Below are positions 9,001 to 15,000 of a DNA stretch of 64,000 bases, in pieces. Each line of letters starts with the position of its first letter. Position 1 is the first letter of the stretch. Source of the DNA: Escherichia coli (lineage in GTDB: Bacteria > Pseudomonadota > Gammaproteobacteria > Enterobacterales > Enterobacteriaceae). A program made the position numbers. The stretch lies in assembly GCF_030384885.1 (NCBI RefSeq), contig NZ_CP128613.1. One strand, 5' to 3'.

Positions 9001-12000
9001 GGCGGGGGAAATAGCTTAGATATCAAAACACTGCATCAGGTGGAATTCCGGCCTCCCTGGGATCCTGACTTACTGGGGCTGATATTACGTGACGCTAATT
9101 TCTTGTATATCAATGGGCATCGCCTCGCAGATCCCGATAGTTTCCGTGTGCTGGCACAAAAGTCATGGGATCAGCGAGGAAAGTTTTCTACCGCGTTTAA
9201 TCCCTGTGTGGCTATGCCATTTGGCCCTTGGGATACCCTGGCTCGTACACGGACCAAAATCCTGATCAACGGCGAACAGCTTGATGCCGACCCGGACACC
9301 TTTTCCGTCGTGCGCTGGATGCCCGGCTCACTCTTGACCTGGCGTGATAAAAACGGGCTACAGCGTAAAGTCCTCGACAAGGAAAATCTGGCGTGGGATG
9401 AAGATTTAACAAAGCACTGTCTGGATTTTTCTCTGCTGGAAAAGAAAGTGTTCTGGCGTAAAGGGCCTGCTTGTAAACAGGAAGAAGTACCGGGGCTCGA
9501 TCCTGAACAGTTCCACCCCATCAGTGATGCTGTCGCCCAGTATCAGGATTCGCTTTATACCATCATCGAAACAGAGTCTGGTGACCGCAACCTGGAGATC
9601 GTAAAACTTGATGATCCCAATCTTATTATCAACAAACGTTTCAACGCCGGGAAACGCCATGGCTATTTACTTACGCGTGCCGAAGGGTGGCCAAACCATT
9701 CCGGTTTACACGTGTTTGAATCTGACGGACCGCTGATCTTACTGGATAACCACTCTCCGGATGAACGCGAAGCCCATCTTGATGACCATCCCTTTTTGCG
9801 CAGATGGTATGCCCGCGATAACCGCTACGTTTACAGCTTTGATGGCGCGCAGCTCTGGCGATACCGCACCGCGGATCCGAAACAAGTTCGCTTAATCTGG
9901 AAGGAACAACATTCGGGATATGGCTATGGCGTAAATTACAAAACGGGATATCTGGACGGAAAAATTACCGATGACGGCGAATTTATTCCTGCCCCGCGCA
10001 ATGAGGCGACAAAATGAAAGGTCAAATAATCACAGTTGCACTCATCCTGTTGGGGCACACATTTCTGACACCTGCTGTACAGGCCATAGGGTTCGACTAT
10101 TACAATGATCACGGTGTTATGTCTTACGGTAAAGGTTATGGGGAGGATGAGAAAATTATTGCCCAATTTCCGAAGATGAACAGAGCCGATTTGCGCCTTG
10201 TGACAAATATATCCGGGAAGCGGGAGTTAGTGGAAGGCTATATACCCACCGATGAAATAAGCATAAAAAATGAGGAATACCACTGGGTGACAGACGGCCA
10301 CGTTATTCTCTGGCGTGGCAAAATCGTTAGCAATCCACCGGGAACACCCACTGTCGATATTGCCAGCTTTCAAGCTATGGGCCGCTTCGCGGTCGATAAA
10401 TATAGCCTCTATTTTGACGGACAGCGCACCGAAAGTAATAGCGGCGCGTCACGTGTTGATCTGGCGACACTAAAAGCTATCGAAGGTAACTCTACCACGC
10501 TGGTGGATAGTAAAAATCTCTACTTGTCCGGTCGACGTCAGGGGAGCAGCAGTAATGTTACTGTATTAGAAAAAAGATGGTGGGGTATTAATCCACGTCT
10601 TATGAGTGTAAACAGAAATTTGTATTCCAATGATCTGCTTATCCGCAGTGGGCAGAATATTTATTTAAATGGCGTTCACCTTACGGCAAATGCAGACTCA
10701 TTTGAGATAATTCGCTGGATACCTCATTCACTGCTGGTTTTTCGCGACAATAAGGGTATGCATCGTTATCCCTTTGGTCAATTATCAGGCAAGGCAATAC
10801 CCGTAGATGATGACGTCTCTTTTGAAGTAGGGGAAAGTCGCGTTCGCTGGCGTAAACAGCTCACGCCCGACCGTCAGTGGAGCCAGTGGATAGACCTACC
10901 AAGTATTGAACCTGAACAATTTCATCTGATTACTGACAATATTGCGCAGTATAAAGATCGGCTGTATGTAACAAAATTATCGACTTTTGGTGAAGACCAG
11001 CTTGAAATAATCCCGCTGGATTCGCCAGACCTGGTCATTGATCACTCATTTAATCGCGGCAAACAGCATGCTTACTTTATCCACCAATTACGGTCACGCA
11101 AGAGCGTGCAAATTATTCCAACTAACAGCCCGCTAACTAAAAACGATCGCTTTGCTTATGACGATCGCAATGTTTATACATGGACCGATACAGAGGTAAG
11201 GATTACACCCTCCCCCTGCCCAGCGAAAACATACGTCAGAGAAAAGAATGTCCGTGAAATTCATAACAGCGACATTATTATTCCGGTGACGGAGGAATCG
11301 TGCCGGAACGCAGCAGCAGACGGGCAAACTTTGAAGCCCTGACACCATGCCGCTATACTGCCGCCATCACCTTAAAACAGGAAACAACAATGAACGACAG
11401 TGAATTTCATCGCCTGGCTGATCAACTCTGGCTGACCATTGAAGAGCGTCTGGATGACTGGGATGGCGACAGCGATATCGACTGCGAAATCAACGGCGGT
11501 GTGCTGACCATTACCTTTGAAAATGGCAGCAAAATCATTATCAACCGTCAGGAACCGCTGCACCAGGTTTGGCTGGCAACCAAACAGGGCGGCTACCATT
11601 TTGATCTGAAAGGCGACGAATGGATTTGCGACCGTAGCGGCGAAACCTTCTGGGATTTGCTGGAACAGGCGGCAACGCAGCAAGCGGGTGAAACAGTCAG
11701 TTTCCGCTAAGATTGCATGCCGGATAAGCCTCGCTTTCCGGCACGCTCATCACGAAAAATACTGCTGTAATAGCGGCGTGTCGTGATCCTGATTGGCAGG
11801 CGGCATGTTGCCGATAGATTTGGTGCGGAACGGAATCACCTGTTCACGACCATCAACCGTCACAATTTGATAGAACTGCGGCAGGTTGAAGTTGATGAAG
11901 CTTGAGCCGTAGGTAAAACGGTCGTGCGATGACGAGTAGAAGCGACTGACGTCACGCACCAGCTCCTCTTTGCTGCCTTCGCAGTGGTGATACACCTCAA

Positions 12001-15000
12001 CCCGGTTGCTTTCGTCGAGAATGTAGATATTAAAGCCATTCTCGTCTTGCGTTTCTTCGAAGAAGAACTGGATGATCCCTTCGCTGGCAAAGCCGTCCAC
12101 CACCGCCGGTAATTTGACGTGATTGGTTTCAACCTGCACTGACAGGCCGTGCAGTTTGTTATGCGAAATAGCGCCATAAAACTCGATGGCATTTTCCAGT
12201 TTCTGTACCGATACATTCAGGCGTTCGAAGAATAAGCCCCAAGTTTGACCAGAAACGCGCAGCGCCTTGAAGCGCCCGGTTTCCTGGCGGGTGCTGGACA
12301 GACGCAGTTCAATGCACTCAGAAACCAGTTGCTGCACGCGAGTACGGATTAAGCCGCGCAGATGCTGGCTGTAGCAGAAGACTTCCACGCTATCTGGCGG
12401 TGCGGCGTCCTGATGCATTTTGCCGAGAATAGTTTTCAGGGCTTCGATCATCGACTGCTCGCCGTTGAAGTGCAGCGTACGCACTTCGTTCCACGAGTTG
12501 CGGTACAGCAGGTCAACGCTACCTACCAGGCAATTTTGGTTTTCGCCAAAGCTGAAGACGTCCAACTTACGGAAATCAAAATGCACCACCTGATTGCGGA
12601 ACGCAGCTGTCGGGTCATATTCCAGGTTAACGATAATCGCCAGATGGCGAATTTCACACGGGCTGTAGAGCGCTTTTGGCGTCGGTGCAGGCAGGCGCAG
12701 CGGGAAATGGTGCGACACATCGGCGACCATCTCCTGCAACTTAGGCAAATCGACAATGCCGTTGCCTTTAATATACAAGCGGGTGCGCGAGGTCAGCAGG
12801 CCGTTAAACCATGCCCACGCCACCAGTTTATTCAGGTAACGGTTATATTCCAGCGGCTGATGGCTGATGATCGACTCAATATTTGGCGCGCGGTTATACA
12901 GATACCAACCTGAACGGTTAGCCCGGCCCGGCGGCACATAAATAAAGGTCAGATTCGGTTCCGAGAGATCGGGCGAAATCTGCGGGTTTACCAGCGTCAC
13001 TTTACCTGGCAATGCTTCAAACGCAGCGTACAGTTTACGCGTCAGAACACCGATATCCTGTGGGCTGGCGGAGACGCTAAGGTTATTGCGACGCGCAAAG
13101 CGGATCAGATTACGGTAGCTCTGCATCATTGCATCGAGCAGCTCGTTGTGCGCCTCACGCACCTGATCAATCTTCCAGTTAGCGCGGTTATCGAGCATTG
13201 CAAGACGACCATCGTCCCATTCCCACTCTTTCACTAACTGGGTTAGCACTTCACGACGCCAGCCTACACAGGCGCGTTCACGGCTGAGTTTTTCGCACAC
13301 TTTTAAATAGAAGCAGCGACGCACTAAATCCAGACGGGTGAAATCTTCAATCGCCGTCAGGTATTCAGTAACACGCTCCAGCATCATGCAGTACGGATCG
13401 AGACCAAACGATACAATCTCGCCGTCGTGCAAACGCTGTTTGATATCTTTCGCCAGCAGACGTGGGTTCGGGTATTCCCAGGAATAGGCTTCCAGCAGCA
13501 GTGTTTTCAGCACCGCTTTGTATGGGGAATCGATACTCTTATAGAGCTGCCAAAGGCTGGCACCAAAGTACTCTTCGGCAGAAAGTGAGCTTAAGCCGCC
13601 GAGATCCAGCCATTCATTAGGAGTAAGCACGCCCTGCGCGTAAAGCGTCATCACATAGTCGTCGTAATGCTCTTCTTCGTCACACGGCACCATATTCCAC
13701 AGAATACGCTTACCCGCGAGACGCACGGCAGTGCGATAAAATTCGTCAAGCAGCAGTATATGCTGGGTGGAGCCACAATCTTCGCCCCCCAGGCTGCCGC
13801 TTTCATTATGACGGAAGCGATTTTCATCAATCAGGAAGAAGCTAACTTCCACGCCCAGCGAGGCGGCCCAGCTTTCCAGCAGGCTGCATTTACGTTGTAG
13901 TAACTGGCGCTCTTCGCTATCAAGCCAGGATTGATGACAGACCCAGATATCCAGGTCAGAGGAACAACTTTGCCCTACGGACGAGGTGCTGCCCATGGTG
14001 TATACACCAGTAATTGGAAGCTCACCTTTCGGCGGATCCTGTACTGACATTCCACGATACAGTTCAAGCTCGTTCAGGTAGTGGCGTTGAGTTTCATCAG
14101 GCGTGTAAAGGCAAATGCCTTTGGGAACGTTACCATCAAGGTAACCCGGCATTAGCGGATGGTGATAGTGCAACAATGTCGGCAGTAGACTGTAGACCTG
14201 CTGGAATGCAGGCCCCATAGCAGCAAGCGCGCGATCCACACGCAATTGATTTATGGCATCCAGTCTCTGTTTCAGAGTCTCAATATAGAGGTACAAGACG
14301 TATCGCCTGATTTGCTACCCGTCATGACTGTGATTCCGCCAACATCAACGGTAACACGCGGCATTCGGGATATTTCGTATGTCAAAGGTAACCGTTACCA
14401 CTTTTCGCGCCTGGTTTTTTTAGTTTCACGACGAAAAAATGGTCTAAAACGTGATCAATTTAACACCTTGCTGATTGACCGTAAAGAAAGATGCGCTACA
14501 TACAAGTGTAGCACCGTTTATTCTCTGTAAATTCCTTATTACGACGGCGTGAAACGCCTGTCAGGATCCACTGCCAGACCTCATTTTACGGTTTGCGCAG
14601 GCGTCTACGTTTCACCACAACACTGACATCGCTCTGGCAAGGATGTTAGGATGGACCACGGATGATAATGACGGTAACAAGCATGTTAGACAATGTTTTA
14701 AGAATTGCCACACGCCAAAGCCCACTTGCACTCTGGCAGGCACACTATGTCAAAGACAAGTTGATGGCGAGCCATCCGGGCCTGGTCGTTGAACTGGTAC
14801 CGATGGTGACGCGCGGCGATGTGATTCTTGATACGCCGCTGGCGAAAGTAGGCGGAAAAGGCTTATTTGTTAAAGAGCTGGAAGTCGCGCTCCTCGAAAA
14901 TCGCGCCGATATCGCCGTACATTCAATGAAAGATGTGCCGGTTGAATTCCCGCAAGGTCTGGGGCTGGTCACTATTTGCGAGCGTGAAGATCCTCGCGAT

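Follow-up and report, generated by a model that had tools for sequence, protein, structure and literature searches.

The stretch of Escherichia coli DNA considered here, a window of 64,000 nucleotides from contig NZ_CP128613.1 (NCBI RefSeq assembly GCF_030384885.1), contains several genes that start on codons other than ATG, among them cyaA, encoding adenylate cyclase, and ilvY, encoding the LysR-type activator of ilvC, both of which begin with TTG. Very probably these are ordinary alternatives to ATG as the initiation codon of known E. coli genes, with the UUG of cyaA held by selection and the codon of ilvY drifting. The non-ATG starts of this region are already annotated, and the cyaA case was characterized by experiment in 1985. 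In the mechanism that we propose, formylmethionyl-tRNA would decode UUG or GUG in the P site of the ribosome following Shine-Dalgarno-guided binding of the 30S subunit, less efficiently than it decodes AUG. In cyaA, the UUG and a weak AGG Shine-Dalgarno sequence would form a conserved, selected pair holding adenylate cyclase synthesis low. In ilvY, the position of the start is fixed and the codon would drift from lineage to lineage among ATG, GTG, and TTG; the TTG seen here is the majority E. coli allele and would not be a conserved regulatory device. The other genes of this kind start with GTG (wecB, hdfR, yifN, wecA, and rffC) or TTG (ysgD), and wecB and hdfR, the two examined for this, have their codon fixed across the species. 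Codon identities, frame limits, and conservation patterns were computed, while the quantitative series for cyaA discussed below comes from the literature.

Start codons were taken from the RefSeq Prokaryotic Genome Annotation Pipeline (PGAP) annotation of strain 2013C-4282 and from the K-12 annotation, and the annotated genes were placed on the window by sequence anchors. Alleles within the species were counted as exact-word matches among 5426 complete E. coli genomes, and Shine-Dalgarno strength was scored as the anti-Shine-Dalgarno duplex energy, for which the window mean is -5.3 kcal/mol. A 3.5-kb query around the cyaA finding matched 5425 of these genomes, with 100% identity to 2013C-4282, whose features under the query are cyaY, cyaA, and hemC. 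Over its full length the window is collinear with that strain, from which it differs only by six substitutions, one 1.26-kb insertion sequence (IS), and one 18-bp indel; the gene order is corA–uvrD–xerC–dapF–cyaY–cyaA–hemCDXY–aslAB–tRNA–wec/rff–rho–trxA–rhlB–gppA–rep–ilvC/ilvY–ilvGMEDA–yifB–hdfR–rrnC.

The TTG start of cyaA, which had been placed at 14294-14296 in an earlier sequence-only reading of the window, is borne out by the 848-residue open reading frame (ORF) and by the agreement of PGAP and K-12 annotation. An in-frame TAG lies 21 nucleotides upstream with no candidate start between, which excludes an upstream start. The protein scores 2045 bits against the NCBIfam equivalog NF006977 (cut-off 1761), with residues 1-848 aligned to profile positions 1-848; family profiles were likewise aligned from residue 1 for IlvY, WecB, HdfR, and RffC. 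cyaA was fetched from 80 Enterobacteriaceae species, and 79 of the loci cover the start. Of these, 78 have TTG at the homologous codon, and residues 1-20 are identical in those 78 loci. In the 79-locus alignment, the variable columns of codons 2-26 fall at codon positions 1, 2, and 3 in the ratio 4/0/17; upstream of the TTG, columns -16 to -1 show one to three alleles, mostly two, and columns -45 to -18 all show four. The substitution pattern thus switches exactly at the TTG, indicating that coding constraint in cyaA begins there. An exact match to the 30-mer centred on the TTG occurs in 5421 of the 5426 E. coli genomes. These patterns point to strong purifying selection on the cyaA TTG. The Shine-Dalgarno sequence is a bare AGG, 9 nucleotides before the TTG, scoring -2.9 kcal/mol.

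A start further downstream has been weighed, as in-frame candidates do exist at codon 18 (TTG), codon 20 (GTG), and codon 27 (ATG), and as the Shine-Dalgarno sequence before the annotated TTG is weak. Such a start is effectively refuted already. Residues 1-20 are invariant across the species loci apart from residue 1 in a single metagenome-assembled genome (MAG); codons 2-26 vary at synonymous positions only, conservation changes character at the TTG, the family profile is aligned from residue 1, and published mutagenesis of the UUG itself alters enzyme yield. An RNA structure sequestering the cyaA start was likewise rejected, since the fold of the region from -20 to +60 is not significant (minimum free energy -15.3 kcal/mol, z = -0.29 against shuffled sequences) and its alifold consensus is weak. 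As a separate observation, an out-of-frame ATG 29 nucleotides upstream of the TTG opens a 17-codon ORF running across it (14272-14325, minus strand). In Citrobacter and Salmonella arizonae a one-nucleotide difference brings this ATG into the cyaA frame, at -30, and no stop separates the two; the ATG is missing in most other genera.

The start at the UUG of cyaA agrees in all respects with what is known of the K-12 gene (Roy et al., 1983; Reddy, Peterkofsky & McKenney, 1985), with which the window shares the gene, the codon, and the 25 nucleotides upstream. According to the account in PMC5499595, replacement of the start codon by Reddy et al. (1985) gave adenylate cyclase synthesis in the proportion 1:2:6 for UUG:GUG:AUG. 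That the UUG lowers cyaA translation relative to GUG or AUG is correct and long published. Its conservation in enterobacteria and other gammaproteobacteria was also reported (PMC5499595, citing Reddy et al., 1985 and Roy et al., 1983), and the Enterobacterales part of this conservation is reproduced here. Nothing substantial sets the present case apart, and most E. coli genomes share 95-99% identity with its cyaA region.

The start of ilvY required correction. The sequence-only reading was right that the gene starts with TTG and wrong about where: the triplet at 48817-48819 is GCT, at the end of a GAGGG Shine-Dalgarno sequence (48813-48817), and the TTG lies 9 nucleotides further downstream, at 48826-48828. 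Nor does the statement that ilvY has no in-frame ATG hold, since an ATG at 48742 heads a mechanical ORF of 324 residues (48742..49716) and an internal methionine stands at codon 25. With the start at 48826, IlvY scores 512 bits against the NCBIfam equivalog NF008722 (cut-off 246), residues 1-295 aligning to profile positions 1-292, and the helix-turn-helix domain that marks membership of the family lies at the extreme N-terminus. The gene is divergent from ilvC (47201-48676, minus strand) across a spacer of 149 bp, in which a TTGCAA-N5-TTGCAA repeat is found at 48788-48804. In orthologous loci from eight other genera, the divergent ilvC/ilvY arrangement is present in all eight, as are an in-frame stop 12-51 nucleotides upstream of the homologous start and a purine run resembling a Shine-Dalgarno sequence. 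A second upstream TTG, at 48811, was considered and rejected as the start, as other strains of the species have ATC or TTA there.

Initiation at the ATG at 48742 would yield the 324-residue protein, and a prediction of this length is indeed found in public protein sets (cluster P0002, 324 residues, 755 member sequences), the reading frame being open from this ATG. It is nevertheless scarcely credible as the start. The equivalent region carries in-frame stops in all eight orthologs sampled, and the 28-codon extension falls outside the IlvY profile and every other LysR profile, the longer version matching NF008722 only from residue 29. The ATG also lies in the divergent ilvC promoter, where it probably overlaps the -10 hexamer (TATAGT, minus strand, 48742-48737). 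The ilvC and ilvY promoters are described as back-to-back, with that of ilvY the strong partner of the pair (PMC4469952), and from this arrangement the ATG should precede the ilvY transcription start. Since a scan of the spacer between ilvC and ilvY for promoter consensus sequences gave no hit, the placement of that transcription start is one that we infer. Taken on sequence and homology, the ilvY start appears secure at 48826-48828.

While the position is shared with K-12 ilvY (Wek & Hatfield, 1986), together with the gene, the divergent ilvC arrangement, and the 149-bp spacer, the codon is not. K-12 has GTG where the window has TTG, the five nucleotides directly upstream also change (gcgcca versus gtccct), and IlvY is 296 residues long here and 297 in K-12. 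Among eight strains read, GTG is found in K-12, O157:H7, and others, and TTG in the present genome, O26:H11, and IAI39. Of the 5426 genomes, at least 3276 carry the TTG allele and at least 1774 the GTG allele of K-12 type, a ratio of about 60:33 (together 93%), and the polymorphism travels with the linked changes in the five upstream nucleotides. In the other genera the codon is ATG in six of eight (Cronobacter, Shimwellia, Cedecea, Winslowiella, Erwinia, and Buttiauxella) and GTG in two. Comparison of N-termini with orthologs, which had been suggested as a check, therefore supports the TTG of cyaA and the start position of ilvY, but the ilvY codon is not conserved. The position of the ilvY start is conserved and the weakness of its codon is not, and the variation of the codon is probably near-neutral.

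Inefficient TTG initiation on both genes had been read as consistent with low-level expression of regulatory proteins. For cyaA this stands, given the published 1:2:6 series and the conserved TTG, but for ilvY it is not supported. The TTG of ilvY could in principle be an adaptive weak start that keeps a regulator scarce, possibly offsetting the strong ilvY promoter (PMC4469952). As a LysR protein under autoregulation, IlvY is required in small amounts, and ATG occurs in none of the Escherichia alleles examined (the eight strains, and the two counted classes that make up 93% of the genomes). This is rather unlikely, however, as the codon is ATG in six other genera and polymorphic in E. coli, unlike the near-invariant TTG of cyaA, and a selected weak start is unsupported for ilvY on those two grounds; a literature search found no experiment on ilvY start-codon strength. 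The broader proposal, that the conserved 16-nucleotide block before the cyaA TTG is a specific regulatory element requiring UUG, more than a weak ribosome-binding site, and that the ilvY GTG/TTG difference is a functional dosage variant, is quite unlikely. UUG has been suggested to support initiation that is robust to nutritional stress (PMC5499595). If the dosage variant were real, lineages would differ in IlvY level and hence in ilvC inducibility.

Regulatory genes in which a weak, selected non-AUG start is recognized include cyaA, infC, and spoT. The conserved non-AUG codon common to such genes is found in cyaA and not in ilvY. Like cyaA, infC, with its AUU codon and autoregulation by initiation factor 3 (IF3), has a conserved non-AUG start that restrains a dosage-sensitive protein (PMC5499595). 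The two differ in that AUU is non-canonical and is discriminated against by IF3, creating a feedback loop, whereas UUG and GUG are canonical alternatives. For cyaA and ilvY, to our knowledge, feedback of the IF3 type is neither known nor indicated.

Several points weigh against the explanation of ordinary alternative starts with selection on cyaA and drift in ilvY. One locus of the 79 (L082, positions 1501-1503, from the MAG Enterobacteriaceae bacterium bran_bin.7) has TTT at cyaA codon 1, and thus phenylalanine at residue 1, while an in-frame stop lies at -30 and the locus offers no alternative start; this TTT could reflect a faulty assembly or be a true exception in which the start has been lost. 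The ortholog sample for ilvY, at eight genera, is small. yifN has a further in-frame GTG at -42 as a possible start. Finally, cyaA, ilvY, wecB, hdfR, wecA, and rffC have no entry in the searchable supplements of the tetracycline-inhibited ribosome profiling (TetRP; PMC4909307) and TRAINSPOTTER (PMC13245402) studies, which means only that no re-mapping has been reported for them.

The coordinates of these starts, and of those in the other genes, are collected in the table.

Table. Start codons and associated features placed on the window, with the basis of each assignment (SD, Shine-Dalgarno).
Feature	Position	Strand	Basis
cyaA coding sequence, class I adenylate cyclase, 848 aa	11750..14296	−	ORF list, PGAP and K-12 annotation, NCBIfam NF006977
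cyaA TTG initiation codon	14294..14296	−	Sequence, species conservation, E. coli 30-mer, substitution pattern
Conserved 16-nt translation initiation region before cyaA TTG, aatcAGGcgatacgtc	14297..14312	−	Allele counts, anti-SD energy
In-frame TAG, 21 nt upstream of cyaA TTG	14315..14317	−	Sequence; no start candidate between
ilvY coding sequence, LysR-type activator of ilvC, 296 aa, TTG start 48826-48828	48826..49716	+	PGAP mapping, NF008722, SD, orthologs
Upstream in-frame ATG heading mechanical 324-aa ORF, rejected as ilvY start	48742..48744	+	ORF list
wecB, GTG start 36599-36597	35469..36599	−	PGAP and K-12 annotation, TIGR00236, 30-mer
hdfR, GTG start 60187-60189	60187..61026	+	PGAP and K-12 annotation, NF002946, 30-mer
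yifN, PemK/MazF-family toxin, GTG start 46273-46275	46273..46722	+	PGAP and K-12 annotation, SD, Pfam
wecA, GTG start 38816-38814	37713..38816	−	PGAP and K-12 annotation; in-frame stop at -24, no other candidate
rffC (wecD), GTG start 32265-32263	31591..32265	−	PGAP and K-12 annotation; NF008212 position 1 = residue 1
ysgD, corA leader small protein, 18 aa, TTG start 761-759	705..761	−	PGAP and K-12 annotation
TTG 39 nt inside annotated yigE ORF (923-1687, ATG 923)	962..964	+	TetRP paper PMC4909307; AAAGGA precedes

The GTG starts claimed earlier for wecB, hdfR, and yifN agree with both PGAP and K-12 annotation. In WecB, residue 1 coincides with position 1 of TIGR00236, and the extension from an upstream GTG at -42 lies outside the profile; the exact 30-mer at this start is found in 5423 of the 5426 genomes. 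HdfR residues 1-277 align with profile positions 1-274 of NF002946, an in-frame stop lies at -36 with no other candidate, and the 30-mer is found in 5408 genomes. yifN has a strong AAGGAG Shine-Dalgarno sequence (-9.1 kcal/mol) and a Pfam PemK_toxin match on residues 37-141. It is intact here, as is ilvG (55948-57594), while both are pseudogenes in K-12 MG1655. Clear sequences also precede the starts of hdfR, ilvY, rffC, and ysgD, with energies, in kcal/mol, of -6.6, -6.1, -5.9, and -5.8, respectively; like cyaA, wecB and wecA have weak sequences, the three ranging from -2.7 to -2.9. Missing from the earlier list were rffC and wecA with GTG, ysgD with TTG, and the TTG mapped by TetRP in yigE. 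The YsgD protein has been detected by tagging (Weaver et al., bioRxiv 10.1101/511675). For yigE, TetRP in K-12 gave the entry "ECK3809_yigE TTG 39", with transcription starting downstream of the ATG but upstream of the TTG (Nakahigashi et al., 2016, PMC4909307). The window carries this TTG too, 39 nucleotides downstream of the ATG and behind an AAAGGA Shine-Dalgarno sequence. From the TTG at 962 the protein would begin M-NLKRIFLALTLLPLF, a typical signal peptide. The RefSeq and K-12 records, unlike the TetRP mapping, still give the ATG, which is probably not the start used.

Over the window, 55 mapped coding sequences comprise 47 ATG, 5 GTG (rffC, wecB, wecA, yifN/PemK, and hdfR), and 3 TTG starts (ysgD, cyaA, and ilvY); exclusion of the IS-disrupted aslA leaves 54 genes (46 ATG, 5 GTG, and 3 TTG), the set used in the comparisons that follow. 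The K-12 record has the same non-ATG genes, the sole difference being the GTG of ilvY. Annotated UUG starts number 81 in K-12 (PMC4909307), and bacteria as a whole use AUG, GUG, and UUG at 80.1%, 11.6%, and 7.8% (PMC5499595). The three TTG starts compare with 1.0-1.6 expected for E. coli (P = 0.08-0.22), and the non-ATG share is 14.8% (8 of 54) against 19.9% across bacteria. The number of non-ATG starts in the window is about that expected by chance. A regional or functional bias towards such starts is thus very unlikely, even though the three TTG give P = 0.08 against the roughly 1.0 expected from the 2006 K-12 count, and four, with the TetRP-mapped yigE, give P = 0.02. At a TTG rate of 3%, P is 0.22; GTG is, if anything, under expectation, and the comparison is post hoc, concerns one window among many, and includes a small protein absent from older annotations.

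Non-ATG initiation had also been offered as the reason why several N-termini are over-extended in the ORF track. The mechanical ORF is longer than the annotation in 20 of the 54 genes, yet 17 of these 20 have ATG starts. The spurious upstream codons are ATG in nine, GTG in six, and TTG in five. Over-extension arises because the ORF listing takes the first ATG, GTG, or TTG after a stop, and not from genuine non-ATG initiation, so this part of the earlier account is set aside.

A number of further features were seen elsewhere in the window. An IS3-family element of 1258 bp (20899-22156), absent from the near-identical 2013C-4282, disrupts aslA. It carries an orfA with an HTH_Tnp_1 domain and an orfB with an rve integrase core, has terminal inverted repeats TGTAGTGG...CCACTACA, and is bordered by a 3-bp duplication, TAC. 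An AT-rich islet of 1.56 kb (49717-51276; GC content 33-43% against about 57% in the flanks) separates the convergent ilvY and ilvA and is found in only 2 of the 5426 complete genomes. Its three hypothetical genes encode 129, 196, and 157 residues, the first with a signal-peptide-like N-terminus, and gave no Pfam or PADLOC matches. Between lptM and cyaY (8539-11342) lie two neighbouring genes, encoding 492 and 442 residues and annotated as DKNYY family, with only weak matches to Pfam DKNYY; in K-12 this interval holds just yzcX and non-coding DNA. Between yigE and uvrD (1770-2672), where the K-12 record has no gene, a gene encodes a protein with a signal-like N-terminus and the domains SAM_HAT_N and SAM_HAT_C, those of the S-adenosylmethionine (SAM) hydroxide adenosyltransferase, or SAM hydrolase/halogenase, family. 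Lastly, hemX (16383-17570) encodes 395 residues here against 401 in 2013C-4282, where the gene is 18 bp longer, and 393 in K-12; this in-frame length variation presumably lies in a repeat.

Beyond annotation hygiene, the importance of these starts is slight. The useful corrections are the right coordinate for ilvY, the rejection of the 324-residue ilvY ORF, which some gene callers still emit, and the addition of the missed genes. The UUG of cyaA is a classic expression-limiting start codon and is correctly annotated. That the weakness of the start codon is conserved in cyaA and not in ilvY is a caution against reading regulatory meaning into every TTG.

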